Shown here piece by piece: positions 11,066-49,900 of a stretch of 64,000 nt of DNA. The stretch covers positions 39,060,001 through 39,124,000 of the forward strand of contig OZ024744.1 of NCBI GenBank assembly GCA_964016885.1. The letters are read 5' to 3'. The stretch comes from Eledone cirrhosa (taxonomy: Eukaryota). Position numbers and translations under genes: made by a program. Numbering within the stretch: position 1 is the stretch's first letter; every line of letters starts with the position of its first letter. The notes under the pieces were generated by a model that did no database searches, had not been told where the DNA came from, and saw only the letters and a list, made by a program, of their open reading frames with translations.

Positions 11066-11160
11066 TCTCCTGATGACAGAATAAGTTCTTCCAATATTGG
11101 TTGTTCCAATAATTTGAAATAATTAATGTTGCTTCTTTATTCTAGAAACCATGGTAGGGA
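11066..11160 (+). ncRNA. Type I hammerhead with large loop II and palindromic stem III
   Basis: tctc-CTGATGA-c-AGAATAAG...TTTATTCT-a-GAAA-CCATGG-TA-ggga. Confidence 0.72.
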
Positions 11161-11488
11161 GACGATTGTATGAGTTAGAGTCTAGACTAACTTATTTTAG
11201 TCGATCTGACTTATATTCCCCTAAATTGAGATTTTGACAGAACTTTATATGTTAATATGAGTTTGATATTTAATCTGTATATTTTATCCATTCATTGAGA
11301 CGTTTAAGTATTAGAAACAAATAACTTTTTAATTGATATTAACCACTCCTTCCTTGTAGAATAGAGTTAGATGTTTTTCGCTACTATTTCTAGCGTCCTT
11401 ATGAGCTTGTATTGTCCTAATATATATATAGAGAGATTTGTTCATTTAGTAGCTCAATAACGCAACGTTTATATATATATGTATATAT

Positions 11489-11682
11489 ATAGGAAAATGT
11501 TCAAGAACCCGACGGCAGAGCTCAAGCCATTTCGACGGCTATTTCAGAAATAGCCGTCGAAACGGCTTGAGCTCTGCCGTCGGGGTCTTGAACATTTTCC
11601 TATTACCCACTCTACTACCCTAAGTATTGAGTACTCTGGTGCGTTATGGTCCATCTGGTTCCTTACCACACTTCCTTCGTTA
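11489..11682 (+). mobile_element. Second copy of the 1369 family, with a 115-bp palindrome (axis 11546)
   Basis: Shared body cctattacccactctactaccctaagtattgagtact...ccttaccaca; (TA)n flanks. Confidence 0.75.
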
Positions 11683-11935
11683 TATATATATACCCCTCTA
11701 ACTAAATTTTGTCCGAACAACACCACTAGAAGAATCTACTTCCCAGCCAACCTTAGCACGCCTCATTAAGCTAACTGCTGCCAAAACATTCTCTCTTCAC
11801 AATCTCTACTAGTCTGACAGTCTTAAACCCTAAGACTCCCTCCACCTTACTCACTTCCCTCTTCCCCTTTTCTTCCTACCTCCTTCTTTATCTTTTATCT
11901 AGTGTACAAAATATTTTCATATCATTCTAATACAA

Positions 11936-12052
11936 AGGTCTGAAGACATGGTGTGTTGGCTTACAGTGTACTTTCGGTTTTTGATAATATTTGTGTATTA
12001 TTCAAATAGCGAGGTATAGGTAACTCATACACTATAGAAACAATTGTTACCT
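11936..12052 (+). ncRNA. Type I hammerhead with large loop II and palindromic stem III
   Basis: aggt-CTGAAGA-c-ATGGTGTGT...ATACACTAT-a-GAAA-CAATTG-TT-acct. Confidence 0.7.
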
Positions 12053-12092
12053 AATAAATTCTATATACCCGCATTTCCATTTCGTAAATTTT

Positions 12093-12147
<55 letters not shown>

Positions 12148-12346: not shown

Positions 12347-12442
<96 letters not shown>

Positions 12443-12836
12443 TGTTATACTTTGGGAGGGTCATGTTGCCAATAAGAAACACACGCACCAGTTTCTTTCA
12501 CTTCAATTTATTATAATAAATTTATAAATTTAGGAATTTATAAATTTCCGTTTGGTTGGTTGGTTCCACAACCAGATGGTTGTTTATATATTGTCAAAGT
12601 TCTTTCGTCACACATTCTGTGACCTCTTCGGTGACTGGAGATTCTTTTCTTTGTTTTTGTGCCTCTCCTTTGTTCTGTCCTACGCCATCTTGTTTCTGTG
12701 TGTGTGTGGTGTGCTCAGTCTGCGCATGCGCCACATCCGGGTGTCTGTGTGTGTTTATATTCGTTTATTTATTTGTTTATTTACATGTTACTGGTTGGTT
12801 GTTTGTTATATGTGCGTGTGTGTTTTCAGGGAGACT

Positions 12837-15404
12837 ATGGACAGAGAAAATAACCAAGACGAACGCACAGACACACAAAATAGAGTAGATAATAACAATG
12901 AGCCAGAGGAAAGAGACAGGAGTAATAATGAGAGACATAGAAACAACCATGAGGCTGTTGGTGGAAATAGAAATAGAAACAACACAACTAACAATAACAA
13001 TAGCACCACTACACATAAAGCAGCAGCCTGGAACTCTACTTTTTATAATCCCTCCGATAAGTCGTTCGACCTGCGACGAGTCCACGCCACGACTTTACCA
13101 TTTAACAACGCACGCAATTGCTGTCGCAGGTCGATGAACAAACAGAAGCACAATTTAGTATAGCTAGATCTAAACTTAGAAATATTATAGAACAGTATAG
13201 CAAGAAGCATAATAGAATGGAGGCCCAGCAACTGGGAGAAAAATCTGCAAATGGCTTGCATAAGCTCATGCAGCGCTCGCGTAATGGAGAGATAGCATGC
13301 TTTCCAACAGACAAGTCTGGCAGAATGTCGGTTGACAGTCTGTCAAACTACATCCAGGCAATGCAACCCCACATCACTAACACAAGAGAAGTAACACCAC
13401 AAGAGCATGAGGATAGCGAAAAAGCCCTCAATGCCCATATGGTGATGTGGACAAATATAATGCAGCCCAACAAAAGGACTGCCAACAATTTCCAGGCCTG
13501 GAACAATGACGTGCCAGCGTTGTATAGGCTTCGAAAAGACCATAAAACGGGCAGTGGCCCTGTCACAAGACCACCAACACGGCCAGTCTGTGGAGCTAAC
13601 ATTGTTAGTAACTACAGACTGTCCTTCCTCTCCCTGATCATACGCCCCATCATTGAAATGTCCCCAGATGTATGTGACAGCACGGAGGACCTCCTCAGCA
13701 GAATCGGCGAGAGTAACCGATCTAGGGACCTAACAAACTGCATAATAGGTAGTATGGATGTTGTGTCCCTATATCCATCTATTGACGTGGATTTTTCTGT
13801 GGAGAAATGCGTAGAAATGATCAGTGAGAGCAATGTTGAGTTCTGTGGGATTGATACCAGTGAGGTGGGACTCCTACTTAAACTTACCTATAGTAATAAT
13901 TATCTAGACACATATGACCTTAGCAATCTGTGTCCTACAAGACCAGCAAGAGGCAGACCACCTACGATTACCTCAATGGCCAAGAAAACCCACACAGATA
14001 GATGGAACGGGTGGACCAGAGCCATACGGACACCCGAAAACCACGATGAACTAAAGAAAATGATTGCACATGTGGTGGGGGCCAGCATAAAATTAACCCT
14101 TAAGGAACATATGTTCAAATTTAATGGAAAAACATATGCCCAAGAGGAGGGAGCAGCCATTAGTGTTAGCATTGCAGGCGACATAGCTAACTTATTCATG
14201 GTATGGTGGGACATTAGACTTAAACTTAAACTTAAAGAACAATTAGAAGACCCCTTAACCCTGATAATGTACTCCCGCTACGTTGATGATATAAACATCG
14301 TAGTTAAAACACCCCACTAGAGAACAGTCAGGAATTAGAGAAAAACACAATGGAAAGAATCCAGCAAATAGCTAACTTCATCCACCAGAGTATTAGAGTT
14401 ACTATAGACTACCCAAGCAAACACCCCAACCATCGATTACCTGTACTAGACACAGAGCTCTGGTTAGATACCATTAATAACAAAAAACAAATCCTCCATT
14501 CCCATTATGCCAAACCCATGACTTCCAAATATCTGATCCACCGAAACTCAGCTGTTTCGGACCATACCAAAATCAACATACTGATTGCGGATTTGGTACG
14601 GGTGATGAGAAACGTGTCCCGCATGTATAACCCCGAAGAACTAGAGAGACACATACAACACTTCATCTGCCGTATGCAGTTCTCTCAGAGAGATAAAATC
14701 AGAGTGTATAGAGGAGCCAGAACCAAATGGGAAAAAATGGTAAATAATGACACAAATGGGACCTGCCCCTTGTATAGGAGCAAATTTTGGAATAGAATAG
14801 AAAGAACTAGGAATAAGGCTAATAGAATAAACTCACGGTATGATAGCAATAAATACCAGAGTGTAATGTTCATCGATACAACCCCTAGAGGTGAATTAGT
14901 TTACAAATTTAGAAGGGCCCTAGATAAACATAAACTCAATATTAAGATAGTAGAAAGACCAGGTACCTCCTTAAAAACACTTATTAGCAAGACATACCCT
15001 TTTCAAAGACCCCCCCCCCCTGTATAGATAAGAAATGTATAACCTGTAAATTAAGCCCCCATATTAACTGTAAAACTAGAAATGTAGTATATAGCATAAG
15101 ATGTACTGAAGGACAATGTAGAGATAAAAATATAGTGTACATAGGTGAGACAGCTCGTAGTGTAGGGGAACGGATAAATGAACACTGGCGAAACCTTCAA
15201 GATAGTAAAGAATCATCTGTACTCTACCAACATGCTAAAATAGAACATAAGGGTAAATTAGAGAACATAGAAATAAAAATAGAATCTACACACAGAAAAG
15301 ACGCAATGTTTAGACAAATCACAGAGGCAATAAACATAAAAGAATTACAACCAAAATGAAATAGAAAACATGGGTGGAACAGCAACATCACAACTTACAA
15401 TTAA
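12837..15404 (+). pseudogene. PLE polyprotein: RT, Cys-rich linker and GIY-YIG endonuclease (disrupted)
   Basis: Motifs TDKSGR, RKDHK, RPVCGA, GSMDVVSLYPSI, QEEGAAI, YSRYVDD, LPVLDTELW, linker C..KC..C...[23 protein letters not shown]. Frameshifts near 13110, 14315 and the poly-C at 15010-15020. TGA at 15357 is TTA in the second copy, which continues NRKHEW; the natural stop is TAA 15402-15404. Confidence 0.9.
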
Positions 15405-15604: not shown

Positions 15605-15647
15605 GTCACTGAAGAGGTCACACAATGTGTGACGAAAGAACTTTGAC
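15605..15647 (+). ncRNA. Minimal type I hammerhead ribozyme in the PLE 3' pLTR
   Basis: gtca-CTGAAGA-g-GTCACAC-aat-GTGTGAC-GAAA-gaac-TT-tgac. Stem I gtca/tgac, 7-bp stem II, minimal stem III. Confidence 0.75.
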
Positions 15648-16028
15648 AATATATAAACAACCATCTGGTTGTGGAACCAACCAACCAACCGTAAATTTAT
15701 AAATTCCTAAATTTATAAATTTATTATAATAAATTGAAGTGAAAGAAACTGGTGCGTGTGTTTCTTATTGGCAACATGACCCTCCCAAAGTATAACAATA
15801 TCGGTTTCAACACACGTTTTCAGATAAAGAATCTTATTAAACAAATTCAGAAACGAAATATATATATATATATCATAAGAAAATATATATATATATATAT
15901 ATATCATAAGAAAAATATTTTTTCGTAAGGAAAAACTACTTCTTTTTGATAGCGAGGCTACACATATGTTTATTGTATATAAACGTTTAATAATGTTTAT
16001 AAATATTTTCACACACACACACATACAT

Positions 16029-19970: not shown

Positions 19971-20544
19971 TCGGGCGGAGAGGACGTGTTTTTACGAGGT
20001 GTGTGAATTAGCGATTTTTCAATTTTTGCATTCAAATAATTGTTTTGTTTTGTTTTTTTTTTGTTACGAAAGAGTCATAAGACATACTTCTGTGCCCTGT
20101 GAAGAGGAGATTTTATAATATTTGGGTCTTTTGGTCCAAATATTTAAACTGTATGTTTTAAAATTTTTATCGAGAAAAAAACATGGCTGAGTCACGCCCT
20201 CCCCCCCTCCCCCCACACACACACTGTAAATCTGCTGTCGTGTGACTGGCTTAAACGTTGAGAGGAGGGATACAGCGAAAATTTATACTGGATATACATT
20301 TAGCAACACCACCACAAACAACATGAACAACGACAGCAACAACAGCAACAGTGAGAACACGACAACACCAACCACACCAATTACACAACAAAGAGACAGA
20401 CAACAGAAACAATGACAACAAAAACAACGAAAATAGCACCACCAACAAGAACATGAACAGCGACAACAACAACACCAACTGCACCGAGAACAATAACAGA
20501 GGCACCAAAGATATAACCAACTGCAACAGGGACAACAACAACGT

Positions 20545-23500
20545 CTTGGAAGCTGCTTAACGATCTCAGGTCACTAAACATAGATGTGGTGGCCATCAGC
20601 GAGATCAGAATCTCCGCGGCAATGGCATTCCCACACATTTTCGGAAGCTACGAGGTGTACACATCTCCAAGCCGGTCCGAATCTGGGGGAGGAGAAGTTG
20701 TGTTGTTCCAGAGAAGTCTGGATCTTGAGATACGGACCATTTTCTTGGACCCAGAAGATAAGTTGGTGGTGCTGGACGTGACCAGTGGAGAAGGGCAAGC
20801 TTTCATGCTAGTGGCCGTCTATGCCCCAACAGGGGCAGGGCGGCCTGATTTCTCCCGGTGTCTGGAGACCTTTCTTAGAACGTCACGCTCTTTAGTGTTA
20901 GTGAGCGACTGGAACGGGATCTTGGTTGCATGCTAGGACTGTGTGGGATTAGCGGATAGGAGACGAGGGTGTAAAAACCTGACAAACCTGCTCAGACGGT
21001 TTCAACTGTCTGACAGGTGAAGTCTGGATTTCCCGAATGTGCCAATGTGGACATAGTCGACTACACGGATCACAAAATCGTGATCTGTGAGGTTGACTTA
21101 GATAGGCTTCATAGACAGGGACCCGGCTATTGTAAACTAAATGCGTCGTTGACAGCCTACAGAGACCGGATTAGCGAACTAGTTAAGCCGGCGTTGACAG
21201 GGGCCATCGTCAACAGCAAATGGTAGTTCGCCCTGAAAAGGGCGATGGGAATAGAGTTTATTAAGTTAAATAAGGCGTTAGCAGTAGAGAAAAATAGGGC
21301 AAAAGGAGAACAAGTTAGAAAATTAGACGAAGCGCTTAGTAAAGGCATCGCAGCCGATGTGCTTGCGGTGAAATTGGCTCTCGAACAATTCTTCAACGCA
21401 AAGAACGAAGGTTGCGTTGTCAGAGCGAGGGTGTGTGCTCTCAGACACGAGGGGACAAAAGCCGTTCGATGGGCCCGAGTTTCGGAGGCGCGTCGTGACA
21501 GCAAGGCTACGATCCGGTCTTTGGAGGACCACGACGGGCGCATTTTACTCGATCCCGGGTAAATGTGTGCGGCTTTTCAGCGACAATTCGCGCAGCTGTT
21601 CGAGGTCAGCGGTGGGCCGGATCGCGGGATGGACTTTAGTGCCTACCTCGACGGACTGCCGCTGTTCTCTGCCATTGGAGAAGAGTGTTGCGAAAAGCCG
21701 ATAACAGCCGCTGAAGTACGGGAGGCAATGACTAACTGCACGATGGGTAAATTGCCGGGTTTGGATGGTCTGCCCCACGAACTTTACGTACTCATACCAG
21801 ATTTGTTCGGCGATCTCTTGGCGGAGGTCTACTGCAACTGGCTTCAGAACGGGAGAATTCCCAGCTCTGTGAGACGAAGAGCGGTGGCGCTGCCGAGAAA
21901 TGACCCGAACAAGAGGGACAATATATATAATTCCAGGCCCATAACTCTGCTAAACGCAGAGTTCAAGATTTTGGCCAATGTGCTAGCAAAGAGGTTGGCG
22001 CTTGTCGTTGGTGGTCTGGTGGGAGAGGCATAGACATGCGCCATTCCAGACAGATCCATCCACGACAACCTCCACATCATACGATATATCGAGGAGAGGG
22101 TAGCTAGGGAACCTGACACGGGTGGGTACTTGATCAATTTAGATCAGTCGAAAGCTTTCGATAAGGTTCAGCCATCGTTATCGGGCGGCGGTCCTGAGAG
22201 CAGCCGGCCTTGGGCCCGTCTTTAGAGGCCGGATCGCTGCAATGCACAGCGACATCTGCTCTGTAGCGACAGTGAACGGTCACCTTTCGGAACTGTTCAA
22301 AATCATGCGCTCGGTCCGCCAAGGATGTCCCCTCTCGTCCCTGCTGTACGTAGTGGCCCTCGAGTCATTACTGCATTAACTGGAGACGGGCAGCCCGTAC
22401 GAACTGGGAAGTGAGAGAACCGTGTGAGCATATGCCGGCGACGTCACCGTAGTGGTGTCGAAATCCAAACACATCGAGGCGATCGACACTACACTAAGAG
22501 AATACGAGGCGGTGACAGGAGCAATAATCAACCAAGAAAAGTCGGTGGGCTTGCGACTCAGCACCTGGAGAGGCAGATCCATGCCGTCTAACAGCGCCGT
22601 CGAGCGCTGGAAGGATGGACCGGTTAAATTGCTAGGGGTCTGGTTCGGTTCGAACCTCCAAACGGACAAAACCTGGGACGAGGTGATGAGCGGGATGGCC
22701 TCTCTCACTCAGAAATGAGCCGAGAGAAAGCTATCCCTGAAAGCTCGAGCGGAGGTGGCGAACGCTTACATCACGTCCGTCATCTACTACCGCCTGACCG
22801 TCATGCCTTGTCCTAAGCCTCGCCTGACTGCACTGGACCGTTCGCTCTTTCGATTTTTGTGGAAGGGACGCGCTCCGATGGTCAGGCGGTCCATGTGCTG
22901 TCAACACCTGCTACGCGGAGGGCTGGGCATGTCATGGCTGATGATGCACAGACATGCACTCAGGCTACGGCATCTCCACCTCTTCCTCGACGGTGATCAA
23001 GTGTGGTCACCCTTTGCTAGACACGTATTTCCCCAGTTCGTCTCCTTGACGGAGCTGCAGTCCTGGGTCAAGCGAAGACCGAGAGGAAGCGTTTGGAGAC
23101 TGGATTGCCCCGCCACCTTCCGGGAAGGGCAGGCAGTTTTTATCTGCCTGGTGGCCATGGTAAAAGAGGTCGTATGGTGGATGAGTCTGAAAGGGTTGAA
23201 GACAGATACTTTCCTCTTCGGTGACGCCCTCATTAATTTTTTCAGGTTTCACCTGAAAAGGAAAATCAGGGTGGAGAGGGAAGTGCTGCCTTCCAGACAG
23301 TTTGTTGAAAGGTGGGTGAGAGAGGCAAGAATGGCCCATGTGAATGGACCTACCCTGAGAGTGTGCCTACACTATCGTAGGAGGAAAACTGGAAGAGGAC
23401 GCTTGCCCTAACGGTCAGAGTGACCGTGGCTTTTTGTTGGTTTTCTCCACGAGTGACCCTCGGAAGTCTTCCCCCTCCCCACCTATTGGGGAATTTTTCT

Positions 23501-23667: not shown

Positions 23668-25605
23668 GTGCTATTGCGTTTAGCTCAGTTCTGTTTCTCT
23701 ATTGCCAGGTTCAGGCCTAGAACCTAGGGCAATAGATGTTTCCATTGTAGAGAGAGAACTCATCTGGAAATGTGTGCTGTTCCTAGTAGCCTGATCTTCT
23801 GTAGCTCATATTTACTGATCTTGCAGAGAAGGGACTAAGGTGCAGGTCTGAGGATTTGGGTATTAATCCTAGTGCTCCTATTATCCCAGGGATAGTGTTT
23901 GTGGTCATCCTCCATATGTGGTTGATCTTTACTTCCAGGTCTTTGTATTTTGTGTTTTTCCATTGTTTTTATAAATATATTCTTGTCAGCTGGTAAGGAA
24001 ATATCTATAAGACTACATATCTGATCTGTTTTGTTTTGTATGATGATATCTAGCCTGTTGGCAGCAATTTCTCCGTTGGTTATCACAGGTATATCCCATA
24101 AGAGGGATATGTTGCCCTTTTCCATGACTGTTTTTGGTTGATGTTCATACCATTTATTAGCAGTTTGGATGTCATGAGAGCGGCAGAGCATCCGGTGCAC
24201 ATATTTGGTAATGCGGTTGTGTCTTTCAATATAGTCAGTTTTTGCCAGCTCTGGACACCCTGAGATAACATGATCTACCATTTCTTCACATTTGTAGCAT
24301 ATTCTGGATAGTGCGCTAGTCCCCTCTTTCACTATTCTGTGTCTATAGGCCCGAGTGTTTAGAGTTTGGTCTTGTGCAGCGACTAAGAGTCCCCTAGTCT
24401 CTGCTTTCAAACCATCACTTCTAAACCAGGATAGTGAGCCATGCTGATCGATATCATTGTCAGGAAGTTGTTCTGGGAATCTACCATGTAGTGGTTTTGC
24501 CTTCCATTCATGGTTTAGTTCCTCTGTTTGGAGTTTCTTTGCTTTGATCTTCACAGTCCTAGCTAGCTGTGCAGCACTCTGTTGTTGATTTTCTATGGTT
24601 ATGTCTTGTTCCATGTTCAGTTTTTGCCTAAATTTTTTTATCTTTTTTTTAATAGTGTGTAGTTTCTTAATTCGTTCTTGCTTGAGTACAGGCATAAAGA
24701 GTTCATCTCGGGTGTAGTGAAGGTAGTTATCCAATCCAATGGTTTCTGTTTTGTATGCAGCTTCCAGTTGTCGGAGCCCCCTTCCATCTTCTCTCTTTGA
24801 GATGAGATATACATCCTATGTACATGCATTTTTTCCATTCTCAATAGTTTCCTTGTCTTAGTGTCCAAACTTTGTAGTTCTTGCAGGTTCCAGTTTATGA
24901 TATTAAAGCTGTATATTACAACTGGTACTGCTAGACTGTTAATGGCTTTGAACTTGTTGCAGGAGTTTAGCTCACTTTTTCTTACCAGTCTCACTCTCCT
25001 TGTGTACTCCTTCCGTACCTTTTCCTTCATACTCTCATGCTGGATTCCATCTCCTTAATTGACTCCAAGATATTTGTAGAACTCTTCATTGTTAAGTTCC
25101 TTTATAGTAGTTTGTTGGTCTATGACAATATATTTATGGTTAGAGAGCAACCCTCTCTTGAATGTGGCTTTTGTACACTTGTCTAGTCCAAATTCCTTAT
25201 TGATGTTATCACTGAATTGTTTTACTGTGTGCCGTAAAGTTTCCAGCTGCCCATCATTGTTTCCAAATAGCTTGATATCATCCATATGTGACTGTGGTGT
25301 CTGTTGTCTCTTTTATATTATCCATAACCTGTCCTCCACAATAACTGACTTAGTGGAGCAAGTGATATACAGAACAGTAAAGGGGACAATGAGTCAACTT
25401 GCAATATTCCACGATTAATCTTGATCTGTCAAGATTCAAGTGGACTGTTGTGGACTATCGTGGAAGGACCATCGTAGTTTTCCAGTCTGTCATCATTGCC
25501 TTCAGGAAAGTTATCTTCGGTGCTACGTGATACATTTCTAGTGTCTTTATGATCCATGAATGAATGAGATACGCCGTCGAATGCCTTCTTGTAGTCTATC
25601 CAGGC
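23668..25605 (-). mobile_element. R4/Dong-like LINE (RT, CCHC and restriction-like endonuclease), decayed
   Basis: MDDIKLF, EFGLDKC, YKYLG, AINSLAVPV, KPLHG, AAQDQTLNTR, C..C....DHVISGC..LA...Y..RHN, LDIII, LIDIS.P.D. Flanked on both sides by (ATT)n. Confidence 0.85.
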
Positions 25606-32465: not shown

Positions 32466-32729
32466 AACGGAAAAAATGAAATGAAATGAAATTTCCCACT
32501 CTTAGTACGGCTGTTACTTAAATATAAGTATGTACACGTACATACATATATGTATACAGACGTACAGTAGTATGTATATATATATACATACATGCACACA
32601 TACATATATGTACGTATGGATTCACCGAACATTTATTATAATGCTCGGTGTGTTTGTAAACAAACATCCCGTATTAAGCCGTAGTGTCCACAGCCATCGT
32701 TGCTCGTTTGTTCAACACTGACAAAGGAA

Positions 32730-32770
32730 CGCTGTACTAGTTTCAAGCTTATTAGCTATCGTCAGCGACG
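32730..32770 (-). ncRNA. Minimal type I hammerhead
   Basis: Minus: cgtcg-CTGACGA-t-AGCT-aata-AGCT-t-GAAA-CTAG-TA-cagcg. Confidence 0.65.
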
Positions 32771-33184
32771 TATACCTTCTTGCCAGGTTGTTGAACGTAT
32801 ATACTTACCTTATGCATATTAACGGCTGAGTAGCCCAATTTGCATATCGAGTGGGTTAATCGGCCGGGTGCACCGAAAACGATAAACGGAAAAAATGAAA
32901 CGAAATTTCATTTCTCACTCTTAGTACGGCTGTTACTTAAATATAAGTATGTACACCTACATACATATATGTATACAGACGTACAGTAGTATGTATATAT
33001 ATATATACATACATGCACACACATATATATGTACGTATGGATTTCGTTTCATTTTTTCCGTTTATCGATTTCGGTACCCCCGGCCGATTAACTCACTCGA
33101 TATGCAAATTAGGCTGCTCAGCCATTAATATGCATAAGGAAAGTATATACTTTCAGTCGTTCAACCATCTGGCAGGAAGGTATA

Positions 33185-33225
33185 CGTTGCTGACGATAGC
33201 TAATAAGCTTGAAACTAGTACAGCG
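33185..33225 (+). ncRNA. Minimal type I hammerhead
   Basis: cgttg-CTGACGA-t-AGCT-aata-AGCT-t-GAAA-CTAG-TA-cagcg. Stem I 5 bp; palindromic ACTAGT stem III. Confidence 0.72.
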
Positions 33226-33428
33226 TTCCTTTGTCAGTGTTGAGCAAATGAGCAACGATGGTTGCTGGACACTACGGCTTAATACGGGATGTTTGTTTAC
33301 AAACACACCGAGCATCATAATAAATGTTCGGTGAATCCATACGTACAATATATGTGTGCATGTATGTATATATATATATACATACTACTGTACGTCTGTA
33401 TACATATATGTATGTACGTATACATACT

Positions 33429-33531: not shown

Positions 33532-33592
33532 ATCATCAGAGCTTAGTAAGCTCTGATGATTACCAACAGTATGAAACAGATCTGTCAAATTA
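33532..33592 (+). ncRNA. Degenerate hammerhead preceded by a small fold-back
   Basis: atcatcagagctta-g-taagct-CTGATGA-t-tac-caaca-gta-t-GAAA-CAGATCTG-TC. The 3' strand of stem I has decayed. Confidence 0.5.
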
Positions 33593-39311: not shown

Positions 39312-40350
39312 AAGTTATGTAATAAACAACATAAGATAATTATTTCATTTACCAGTGGTTTCTTGAAGACAGATATTGTATCTGTCTTCAGTCGTCAGAA
39401 TGAATAAAAAACATGTTTTTTTTTTATTAAATATGGATTTGAAAATAAAATTTAGGAAATATGAAAGTCAGACTGCAAAAAACCGGTGAAAGGAAATATC
39501 TGTCTTCAAGAAATCCACGTATAGACACCTGAAGCAAGGCTACATATGGGGAGATCATGGTATTAATGTAAAGGGTATGCCCAGGCCGTATCTAGTAAAT
39601 GCATGCAGGATATAAAAAAAAAGTATGCAGAATATATAAAAAATACATACATCTGAATTATATAAGAAAAGTATACAAAGATATACATTGGTTTGTACAT
39701 GGAAAAATACATGGAGTGTTACATAATGTAGTGCGTGGAAAATATGCCCGTACCACTGAAAAGATATACATGCAGGGAGTGCGTGAATAGGCCATAAAGG
39801 AGCATCTCACTGTGGGTGAGATAGAGTGCCTTATTGATGTATGGTACGGGACTGAATATCCGTGGAGGTTGAGCCACCGTGTCCCGGCTCATGCAATGTC
39901 GTTGCCGAGTCCGATAGGCAGCATAGGTTGCGTCGACTTGCCTCACAGGGCATACATAGTCAACAAGGTATGGTGTCTGATCCCTTGGACCCGCGCCGTC
40001 GCTCAGACCGGCGTCCGCTTCCCCGCATGCCTTTAGCTTGGGCTGTCCGGTTGGGTCCATGCGGAGAAAGTGCACCTTCTCTGGTGTCTGAACGTTATGA
40101 TAATCTCCGATTTCAGGTTGACCGCATCATCCTTCAATCTGACTATCTCCATGGCCTCGGGTAGGCATAGCCTACACTTCCTGTTTCCAGCCGAATATGC
40201 ATTTGCATATTGAACGATACTTCAGTTGAGATCATATGGGTGCCGTTGTCTTTCAAGTCCCATATTAGGTCCGCCAGCCTAATGGAGTGTCTCTTGCTCC
40301 GGCCCTTGAAAGAGACATCCTCGATTTAAAATTCGTGGTTGTTGCGCCGA
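39312..40350 (-). mobile_element. PLE fragment of another clade (Nematis-like GIY-YIG C-terminus plus 3' pLTR)
   Basis: Minus-strand peptide remnants LADLIW..KDNG...AYSAGNRKCRLCLPEAMEI...VNLKSEII..FRHQR (~40060-40300) match the PLE endonuclease end pattern KC.LCL.E..I..LN.RSE..CRH. A hammerhead lies downstream on the same strand; ends at (TA)n. Confidence 0.65.
39344..39404 (-). ncRNA. Complete type I hammerhead ribozyme
   Basis: Minus: ttcatt-CTGACGA-c-TGAAGACAGAT-acaat-ATCTGTCTTCA-a-GAAA-CCactGG-TA-aatgaa. Stem I 6 bp, stem II 11 bp, triplet GUA. Confidence 0.8.
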
Positions 40351-40620
40351 TTTAGGTGCGCTTGGTGTTGTGCGTGTTAACCACACATTTATATACTATG
40401 CCTTTCGTCAGACATCTTCCCTACAGGGGGCATTGTGTGCCTATACGTGGATTAATCCACGTTGGCAACATAATATCAACTCTGTCAGCACGTACACCAA
40501 GGTCCATGTTTGCATGTACAGCCCAATGTGTATCTTTATATGCTTTTCTTATATGTATTTTTTGCATATTTTTTTATGTGTGTGTAGATGTGTAAGAATA
40601 TATGTGCGAGTCTGTGTGTA

Positions 40621-44443: not shown

Positions 44444-45297
44444 ACATACCCTTTTCAAAGACCTCCATGTATAGATAAGAAATGCATAATCTGTAAACTA
44501 AGCCCCCATATTAACTGTAAAACTAGAAACATAGTATATAGCATAAGATGTACTGAAGGACAATGTAAAGATAAGAATATAGTGTACACAGGTGAGACAG
44601 CTTGTAGTATAGGAGAACGGTTAAATGAACACTGGCGAGAGCTTCAAGATAGAAAAGAATCATCAATACTCCACCAACATGCTAAAAAAGAATATAAGGG
44701 CAAATTAGAGAACATAGAAATAAAAATAAAATCTACACACAGAAAAGACGTAATGTTTAGACAAATCACAGAGGCAATAAACAATTACTCCAACCAAAAT
44801 TAAATAGAAAACATGAATGGAATAGCAACATCACAACTTACAATTAAGGACAAAATGAAAACACACACACATAGAACAAACAACCCACCAGTAACATGTA
44901 AATAAACAAATAAATAAACAAATAAAAACACACACAGACACCCGGATGTAACACATGCGCAAACTAAGCACGCAACACACAAAAACAAGATGGCGTATGA
45001 CAGAACAAAGGAGAGGCACAAAACAAAGAAAAGAATTCCCAGTCACTGAAGAGGTCACAGAATGTGTGACGAAAGAACTTTGACAATATATGAACAACCG
45101 TCCGGTTGTGGAACCAACCAGCCAACCGAAAATTTATAAATTTTTTAAATTTATAATTTAATTTATAATAAATTGGAGTGAAAGCAACTGGTGCGTGTGT
45201 TTCTTATTGGCAACATGACGCTCCCAAAGTATAACAATATCGGTTTCAACACACGTTTTCAGATAAAGAATCTTGCTAAACAAATTCAAAAACGAAA
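44444..45297 (+). mobile_element. 5'-truncated second copy of the same PLE (linker, GIY-YIG, pLTR and tail)
   Basis: YPFQRPPCIDKKCIICK...YTGETACSIGERLNEH. Colinear with ~14992-15857 and ends in (TA)n. Confidence 0.9.
45042..45084 (+). ncRNA. Minimal type I hammerhead (copy in the second PLE)
   Basis: gtca-CTGAAGA-ggtcacagaatgtgtgac-GAAA-gaac-TT-tgac. Confidence 0.72.
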
Positions 45298-46918: not shown

Positions 46919-49900
46919 CTCACGGCGCATCCATCTTGCCATCGCGAACTCGCCTCCTTCTTCTGGCGGGTCTCGCGCAGCCCTAACACGTCGCACCTGA
47001 TCTTCTTCTCCTCCATTAGGTGGTTCAGTCCTTACCCCCCTGCCAAAGACCTGCAGTTGTAGGTGCATATGGCAAGGTTACTCCTGGACCATGGCGGCCT
47101 TCGGGAACCTGTGATTCTTAGCAGCCTCTCGTCACTCGGATTGCACTCCGCCATCGTGGAGTGACCCGATTGACGCGCAGGGTACTGGAGCCCTTTTCTT
47201 CGTGCTGTTTTAGCCATAAGATGACGCCATCCTACTGGCTGGGCGGGCAGGCCGGTACCTCTTCAGTTTAGCTAGCTTTTGAACTCTAGAAGATGATGAA
47301 TCATCTCTAGGACCAAAAGTCTGATACCTGTGTAGCATGGTAATACCTGCCAGGACATTGAGTCCCGCTACCGTAGCTATCAGACAGCCAGGGTCACCAC
47401 TGCGCCACTTTTGAGGCACTGAAGTAGGATTTTGCAGAGGGATGCGCCGTGAGACTCGGGAAAGCAGAGGGTGCCAGATCGGTCGGAGGTGTAGGGTTCA
47501 TCGTTAGCAATGAATAGGCTTCGAAGGTCGCTCCTTGCCAGTTCATATCGTCATGGATTGGTGTACTGAACGTGGCCTCAAGATCGTCAAGACCTACACT
47601 CCCACAAGTGCCAGTGACGACGATGAAGTGGAAGAATTCTATCGCCAGTTAGACAAAGTGCTAGCTGTGAAGTCCACTTACACCGTCGTGATGGGAGACT
47701 TCAACGCAAAGTTCCGAGAGGGACGGCAAAGGGAAGAGTATGTCGGAAGATTCGGCCTAGGATAGCGTAATGAGAGAGGAGAGCGTCTGGTCACCATGGC
47801 GGAGGCGAGATGGCTCTACATTGGAAACAGCCTATTCAGGAAGAAGGAGGAGAAGAGATGGACCTGGCTTCTGAGCACCGAAACGAGATCGACTACATCC
47901 TGGTCCTCAAGCAACGCATACTGCAGGACGTCTCCGTCATAACGCCATTCAACACTGGCAGTGATGATCGTCTGGTGAGGGCGAAGGTCGTCATCGACCG
48001 GATGAGGGAGAAGAAGGCGCTGCATTTGGCGTCGAAGGGAGAACGCGTCCGGGTCTTCAACAAGGCGCAGCTGCAGGAAGCCATCATGCAGGAAAACTGG
48101 CATCAAGGAGATGGCATAGACGCTGACTACGACTCACTGATAAGGAAACTGAAGGAGTGCTTGAGGAAGGCTAAGGGTGTGTGCCCGAGGAAGCGGAAGG
48201 GAAGAGTCTCGGAGGAAACTATGAAGTTGCTTGAGAAGAGAAAGAATATGAAGAGGACACCTGAAGATCACCTCGAATATTCCCTTCCCAGCAGAGTGAT
48301 ACGTCAACAACTGAAGAGAGACTTCGAGGCATACCAGATGGAGAAGCTCCTGAAGGCTTCAGAGGAAAAGAAGAGCCTCAAGAAAGGCGAGAGGGACATG
48401 GCAATGTACAGATCGAAGGTGACGACCCTGAAGAACACAGCTGGAATACCGGTCAGCAACAAGTGTGAGGTGGAAAAGGTTTGCGAAGACTTCTACACCA
48501 AGCTCTTCAAGTCTGCCAGGAATATGCAGCCGTTGCCGTCACTCCAACAGGAAGAAAATGAGCCACCCATCCTTGTCAGCGAGGTGGAAAGAGCCGTCGG
48601 CTTGATGAAAAGCGGAAAGGCGCCAGGGAAAGACGCATAACATCGGAGGTGTTGAAGTCAGGCGGAGAGCAGCTCTGGAAAATCCTCGCCGAGCAATTCA
48701 CACACTATCTGGACGAGGGAAGAATACCCTCGCAGTGGAAAGAGTCGAATACCATCCTGCTATACAAGAAGGGCGATAGAGAAGATCTGAAGAACTACCG
48801 ACCCATATGCTTGCTGTCTCACGTGTACAAGCTGTTCACGAAGATAATCTTGAACAGGTTATCACATCATCTGGACGAACAGCAACCCAGAGAGCAAGCT
48901 GGCTTCCGGAAGAACTACAGCACGATGGACCACATATTTACTCTGACACAACTGCTTGAGCGAACGAAAGAGTACAAGATGCCTCTTTGCGTCGCATTCG
49001 TAGACTACAAGAAGGCCTTCGACAGCGTCGAAATCAATGCAGTGCTGAACTCGCTGCAGAGGCAAGGAGTCGAGGCGCAATACGTTCAACTGCTCAAGGA
49101 GGCGAATTCCGGATGCACCACCAACATAGCTCTGCTGTCATCACCCGTACGAGTGCCGGTCGAGAAGGGAGTGAAGCAAGGAGATAAGATCTCTCCAAAA
49201 CTTTTCACCGCGTGTCTCGAGCAGATCATCAGAGGCATTGACTGGCAAGGCGGTATCAACATCAACGGCGAGATACTTGCCCACCTCCGTTTCGCTGATG
49301 ACATCGTACTCATCGCTGAAACCACGGATCAGCTTCAGACCATGCTGACGGAGCTCGACATCAAAAGCTCTGCAGTAGGCATCAAGATAAACCGTATGAA
49401 AACGAAGTTCATGCGGTCCGACAACGTACCAACAGATCGAATGGTGGTTGGCAGTGATGAAATAGAGGAGGTGGAGGAATACGTCTACCTGGGACAAGAA
49501 GTGAACATGCGCCGAGACATTGAGAGGGAGATCTCGTGGAGAGTAAGGGCCGGATGGAAGGCGTTCAACGGCATAAGGGATGTGCACAAGGGGAGGTTGG
49601 ACAAGACCACCCGTGCCAACCTCTTCAATAGCATAGTTTTACCTGCAATGTTATATGGCAGTGAAACATGGGCTACAACGAAGAGAGAAGAGCAGAGGCT
49701 GGTAACGGTTCAAAGAGCCATGGAGAGATCACTGCTAGGAATCTCGTTGAGAGAGCACATCAGGAGCGAAGTCATCAAACAGAAGTCCGGGGTGGGACGT
49801 CAACACGGAATATATGCGTAGCAAGTTCAGATGGGCTGGACACGTCGCCCGGTTCACCGATAATCGGTGGACTCGCGCAGTTGCCGAGTGGTACCCGCGC

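Follow-up and report, generated by a model that had tools for sequence, protein, structure and literature searches.

Putative type I hammerhead motifs of Penelope-like repeats with an apparently relaxed 10.1·11.1 position in Eledone cirrhosa

Five type I hammerhead motifs, designated by family as F1 to F5, were identified in the window (the whole 64,000-nt stretch of DNA analysed here, from a genome of 3.0 Gb), all of them at the positions given in a preliminary description of this DNA (Table 1). The motifs arrange CUGANGA, GAAA and UH around a three-way junction with an open stem I, and the minimum free energy fold of F3 is the hammerhead three-way junction itself. The pattern CUGANGA-C-stem II-A-GAAA that had been read at 11066+, 11936+ and 39344- was recovered with C·A at all three sites in a descriptor scan, and the U·U closures proposed for the motifs at 33185 and 33553 were found in both. 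None of the five has the Watson-Crick pair that the strict consensus places at 10.1-11.1, which is ranked in conservation behind only 15.1-16.1 among hammerhead pairs (PMC3088659); C·A or U·U is present family-wide in the F2-F5 seeds.

Table 1. Hammerhead motifs, predicted cut sites and the associated retroelement copy, numbered from the first letter of the window.
Feature	Positions	Strand	Description
F1 type I hammerhead	11066..11160	+	core CUGAUGA 11070-11076, C·A 11077/11144, 68-nt rod stem II, GAAA, stem III CCAUGG
F1 predicted cut	after 11156	+	palindromic stem III CCAUGG
F2-bearing Penelope-like element copy	11692..12102	+	5'-truncated, 3' pLTR end, 98% to full element L136
F2 type I hammerhead	11936..12052	+	core CUGAAGA 11940-11946, C·A 11947/12036, 90-nt rod stem II, stem III CAAUUG
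F2 predicted cut	after 12048	+	
F4 second copy, inverted	32723..32776	-	U·U, one stem I mismatch
F4 type I hammerhead	33184..33226	+	core CUGACGA at 33190, U·U 33197/33210, 4-bp stem II, stem III CUAG
F5 hammerhead	33547..33592	+	core CUGAUGA at 33553, U·U 33560/33572, 3-bp stem II, stem III CAGAUCUG
F3 type I hammerhead	39344..39404	-	core CUGACGA 39398-39392, C·A 39391/39363, 12-bp stem II, stem III CCACUGG, 6-bp stem I

A mismatch-tolerant descriptor search required the core, a short stem III and at least 4 bp in both stem I and stem II. In the window it returned four mismatch-closed motifs (three C·A and one U·U) and two insertion-type motifs, against means of 0.005 and 0.015, respectively, in 200 block dinucleotide shuffles, all 200 of which contained zero C·A motifs. 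The copy at 33553 escaped the scan owing to a mutated 3' arm of stem I, an arm that is intact across the F5 family. Since the descriptor demands the core and minimum stems, the presence of these elements across families is partly by construction. The contention that strict searches would miss such motifs was borne out: the Rfam hammerhead model gave no gathering-score match on four other loci, no hammerhead appeared among 150 of the 197 Rfam rows listed for the window, and 10.1-11.1 mispairs other than U·U were filtered out of the search reported by Perreault in 2011 (PMC3088659). The 2014 consensus for the minimal hammerheads (min-HHRs) of Penelope-like elements (PLEs), with an extra nucleotide after A9 and a G10.1-C11.1 pair, does not describe the mismatch-closed motifs and was found instead in the motifs at 15609+ and 45046+.

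The large loop II of ~50-70 nt noted earlier for the first two motifs gave way to a different structure, with the stem II regions of F1 and F2 folding as long paired rods with internal loops (z of -4.43 and -5.50 for the 68- and 90-nt regions; 0/200 shuffles). The F2 rod contains an internal UAGGUA segment, and in F3 stem II is capped by a 3-nt loop. Further hammerhead-like sequences occur elsewhere in the window, including a core at 1832+ with a 9-bp stem I, an A·C closure, a 4-bp stem II and an 18-nt stem III region, found as a single match, and motifs at 17173-, 46436+, 51391- and 57955- with insertion-type or paired closures, some of them degenerate. A frameshifted PLE of another type (13106-15359 +; GIY-YIG, E 6e-5) is followed by the insertion-type hammerhead at 15609 (15605-15650 +) and has an inverted terminal-repeat copy upstream (12348-12828), while 44450-45090 holds a related endonuclease end with a hammerhead. 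Long near-perfect inverted repeats (foldbacks) are present among (TA)n tracts at 11494-11598 and 2662-2807, and the broken frames at 47774-49821 +, 20517-23411 - and 23835-25054 -, labelled by eye, are presumably of the non-LTR retrotransposon type.

Eighty evenly spaced 10-kb stretches of the genome (800 kb) yielded 28 motifs, of which 19 were mismatched, seven paired and two insertion-type; the reversed pattern returned none and 20 shuffles returned three in all. The mismatches comprised U·U (9), A·G (5), C·A (3) and A·A (2). The proportion of 19/28 is an upper figure, because paired families in which just 2 bp underlie the closure escape the scan. By rough extrapolation, the sample suggests that tens of thousands of mismatched hammerhead motifs may be present in the genome. 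In a looser, seed-biased scan of all the DNA examined, 261 distinct motifs fell into 40 clusters, of which 20 were mismatched, 17 paired and 3 insertion-type. The raw genome count of the C..A pattern (231, versus 474 for the reversed control) was discarded as uninformative alone, with 9 of 30 loci forming both stems. Among the 120 C·A matches listed in viral contigs (type I only), none formed both stems I and II, and contigs of two runs added nothing on expression.

Across the families, covariation of the flanking stems accompanied drift of the 10.1·11.1 position, which was read as C·A, U·U, U-A, C·U, C·C, A·G, A·A or G-C. A pattern based on the F4 scaffold produced 1,543 matches, versus 1 in the control, and the first 100 listed, counted by eye for the C·A sister family of F4, comprised 82 C·A, 9 U-A, 6 U·G and 3 C-G closures. 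Complementary patterns revealed C·U and C·C subfamilies, as well as U-A sisters of C·A families, which refuted the notion that A is the sole partner of C and that Watson-Crick closures of the pyrimidine-purine type are selected against; of the latter, C-G alone stayed rare. Other families are closed by A·G or A·A; two of these are A·G-closed (L309:3338+, L238, L239, L286), and one A·G family lies 1.2-1.3 kb after an endonuclease of the Hydra type that is very abundant. A 14-nt stem II is common to five related motifs, closed by U·U, C·A, G-C, A-U and U·U. A covariation check on these five hand-picked sequences, of the F4 group only, showed that 9 of 13 pairs have changed on both sides, and 0/500 shuffles reached the score. 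The 10.1·11.1 position hence appears to be relaxed and, since it exchanges freely among related families, C·A would be its most striking state and not a class of its own.

The mismatch had been proposed to be a tolerated or selected variant, and whole families were indeed found to carry it. In DNA-seeded alignments, C·A was present in 32/32 rows of F2 and in 41/41 rows of F3 (two of them duplicates), and U·U was kept in F4 and F5. DNA-seeded searches favour near-identical copies, and the closures were therefore recounted on loci found otherwise. For F2, the recount comprised 23 copies from 30 protein-ascertained loci, and because all 23 keep C·A, this closure is inherited in the family. The decay of single copies was thus ruled out for F2, and also for the C·A sister family of F4. 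The recount yielded four C·A, two A·A and one U-A among F3-like copies (n=7), 11 U·U and two C·A among F4-like copies (n=13), and two A-U and two G-C among F5-like copies (n=4). F1 is an old, mixed family that includes C·A and U·U subfamilies, with six C·A, six U·U, four A-U, three C·U, two U-A and four other closures in 25 copies. Its 10.1 and 11.1 columns are two of only 6/196 with at least 45% variation, and its 11.1 letter is linked to an indel marker (11/13 versus 2/16, hand-counted; p=1.5e-4), indicating that F1 holds at least two subfamilies.

The F2 motif is present in both terminal repeats (pLTRs) of a young Penelope-like element. At locus L136, two F2 motifs lie 3,011 nt apart, on either side of a 782-codon RT-endonuclease open frame, and in L136 and L178 the host presents a single frame encoding RT and a C-terminal endonuclease, a length of about 3 kb, pLTRs, and tandem and inverted copies. 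Read by eye, its ORF carries RW(K/N) (RWK in L178 and in a sister family, RWN in L136), DKT, a CxCx5C linker, CxxC and CxH, and the element inserts in (TA)n; section 11 of PMC8557442 gives RWK, DKT, CxCx5C, CxxC, CxH and (TA)n targets as traits of Hydra-clade PLEs, and in a by-eye comparison the ORF resembles the Hydra-clade proteins of the supplement to that paper. Pfam returned no match on this ORF, and its 99 homologs are mostly unnamed, including the Hydra vulgaris protein P0097. On its ORF motifs and architecture, we assign the F2 host to the Hydra clade of Penelope-like elements. The copy in the window sits between (TA)n tracts, with its 3' end about 54 nt beyond the predicted cut.

A cleavage footprint was sought in the copy ends of 13 ORF-linked F2 copies, and none was found. 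The 5' ends are dispersed between -481 and +208 relative to the predicted cut, 1/13 being within 5 nt, and this scatter implies that the integrated copies bear no footprint of cutting. The 3' ends fall in two preferred places, 46-57 or about 160 nt beyond the predicted cut, and since they pass it, the templates were uncut or re-ligated. Copies of a sister Hydra family end at +62 and +168, compared to about +50 and +160 in F2. This young sister family (L174-L177, L181; e.g. L177:4275-4390 +) has intact 781-aa frames (77% protein identity). It retains the core and a rod stem II whose base has covaried, is closed by A·A and lacks stem I, suggesting that cleavage may be dispensable. The 3' arm of its hammerhead is complementary over 8 nt to a segment within stem II, and a homologous 8-nt complementarity in F2 would cover the cut site; in both families this could possibly form an off-switch hairpin.

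Hydra-type endonucleases were also identified upstream of F3 and of two further C·A families. In L292 and L293, possibly a single insertion that was duplicated, F3 follows a Hydra-type ORF fragment at a distance of 1.5 kb, and an inverted copy is located upstream. The two further families follow Hydra-type endonuclease ends at distances of 0.7-1.2 kb. In the window, a broken Hydra-type endonuclease end (40063-40432 -) is located 665 nt upstream of F3, a link that is unproven because the intervening stretch is not common to other F3 copies. No consistent upstream endonuclease was detected for F1, F4 or F5 in the loci examined. F4 resides in a repeat of roughly 400 bp that occurs as tandem and inverted arrays, with no ORF seen. 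The motifs had been regarded as unrelated; wherever they could be traced, their descent is common to one PLE clade and, since several lead to this clade, they are not independent inventions.

The inner letters of stem III are self-complementary in 56/79 pairs, versus 26% expected (p about 1e-16), and the inner stem is fully self-complementary in 13/20 mismatched clusters and 6/17 paired clusters. The palindromy previously noted for stem III thus far exceeds chance; in F3 the palindrome is interrupted by a central C. Computed stem III hairpins range from +0.4 to +6.0 kcal/mol as monomers, and self-duplexes from -4.8 to -13.6 kcal/mol. The motifs thus display the palindromic stem III and loop, unstable as a monomer, of dimer-type PLE hammerheads, and these modelled energetics would agree with the published dimer model for such hammerheads (PMC4209133, PMC6765202).

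With a probability of about 0.65, we favour the interpretation that these motifs are type I hammerheads of Penelope-like repeats, those at 11940 and 39398 having been traced to the Hydra clade, with a relaxed 10.1·11.1 position and probably slow self-cleavage as dimers through their palindromic stem III. In a tandem transcript, two motifs would pair their stems III, and each paired motif would cut after N17, trimming the tandem transcript to unit-length RNA that may be re-ligated and then reverse transcribed. By analogy with published U·U hammerheads, the 10.1·11.1 mismatch would reduce, but not abolish, the rate of cleavage.

It is unlikely, by contrast with this scheme, that the motifs have little or no catalytic activity left and have been retained as a structural signal, for instance for the RT or in setting the 3' end, with the mismatch reflecting drift after catalysis lost importance. 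The success of the sister Hydra family without stem I and the indifference of F2 copy ends to the predicted cut site would both be expected of a dead signal, as would the reports that Naiad PLEs thrive without canonical hammerheads (PMC8557442) and that PLE min-HHRs are poor cleavers in vitro (PMC4209133). Nonetheless, the stems covary among relatives, the palindromy of stem III is kept over 40 clusters even though the descriptor does not demand it, and U·U motifs have been published as active (PMC3088659, PMC7229834).

Relaxed motifs cleaving slowly as dimers also account for the closures better than the class closed by C·A of the preliminary description, taken here as a specifically selected wobble pair with pH-dependent activity, which we consider quite improbable. 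A C·A pair with a protonated A is isosteric with U·G. C·A is the majority closure in 9/40 clusters (four of them first found by the C·A pattern), it swaps with U·U as double changes in F4 and in F1, where the indel linkage described above accompanies the swap, and C-G is confined to scattered copies (3 of the first 100 listed). However, the same lineages include U-A, C·U, C·C and U·U subfamilies, other families are closed by A·G or A·A, and C·A is a single transition away from U-A. Little credence can be given to the remaining alternative, in which the two letters are unpaired, the C being the extra nucleotide after A9 of PLE min-hammerheads, the A a second bulge before G12 and the true 10.1-11.1 the next pair down: PLEs conserve an additional nucleotide between 9 and 10.1 (PMC4209133), which the window motifs at 15609 and 45046 also have, and File S2 of PMC8557442 writes these letters within the core, but related families replace the two letters symmetrically by Watson-Crick pairs without any change in stem length, as would suit a single pairing position.

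The relaxed, dimer-cleaving interpretation can be extended, tentatively, to a broader and more doubtful proposal, in which Hydra-clade retroelements would amount to a natural mutagenesis of 10.1·11.1, with C·A, A·G and A·A motifs active as dimers, the mismatch acting as a tuned brake on self-cleavage, the long stem II possibly harbouring a switch hairpin, and half or more of the hammerheads of such genomes (tens of thousands) invisible to standard descriptors. Hammerhead searches filter on the 10.1-11.1 pair, and hammerhead censuses in such genomes are hence undercounts. Young, high-copy families fixed for C·A and their U·U, U-A, A-U and G-C sisters constitute matched sets on near-identical scaffolds, with which the tolerance of the catalytic core for an open stem II base, and the need for PLE hammerheads to cut at all, could be gauged.

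A literature search, covering few subscription journals, figures or supplements, found no description or assay of a C10.1·A11.1 hammerhead, and an earlier description is possible. Such variants may already figure among the dimeric PLE hammerheads reportedly described by Lunse in 2017. Perreault reported a natural U10.1·U11.1 hammerhead in 2011, with U·U cited as the most active mispair (PMC3088659), and the axolotl HHR_Amex2, which also carries U·U, is capable of cleavage, more so as a dimer (PMC7229834); double-mutant data for the 10.1-11.1 pair are presented as a figure in PMC9901934. Both U·U systems resemble the motifs described here in combining a mismatch at the base of stem II with, in their case, retained cleavage, but the mispairs they report are U·U only and, unlike the present motifs, HHR_Amex2 is part of a non-LTR retrozyme and has retained the contacts between loop 1 and loop 2. 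The F4 repeat resembles the non-LTR retrozymes (PMC7229834; bioRxiv 10.64898/2026.07.22.740005) in its size of about 400 bp, its tandem arrangement and the lack of a visible ORF, but F4 arrays are often inverted.

Closer counterparts are found among PLEs. The PLE min-hammerheads of Cervera and de la Pena 2014 (PMC4209133), reported to combine low activity with high family diversity, share with the motifs described here their location in pLTRs, the palindromic helix III and the dimer model, but differ in their extra nucleotide after A9 and their highly conserved G10.1-C11.1, in place of which the present motifs have a symmetric mismatched closure and a longer stem III. In File S2 of Craig et al. 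2021 (PMC8557442), by our own count, U·U closes the hammerheads of 14/25 Hydra families (two rows identical) and U·C those of one, and the single C·A entry is the Chara element PLE-X1_cBra, all of them headed canonical. The paper calls those hammerheads canonical, and the passages covered do not discuss the mismatch. The finding thus largely extends a known U·U trait of Hydra-clade PLE hammerheads, and its novelty is modest. Hydra-clade elements in that study likewise carry type I hammerheads near the element 3' end, with a palindromic stem III and a mismatch under the core, and have (TA)n targets and the same ORF motifs. In contrast with the families reported here, C·A, A·G and A·A are absent from its 25 Hydra families, and its short stems II are replaced here by rods of up to 50-100 nt.
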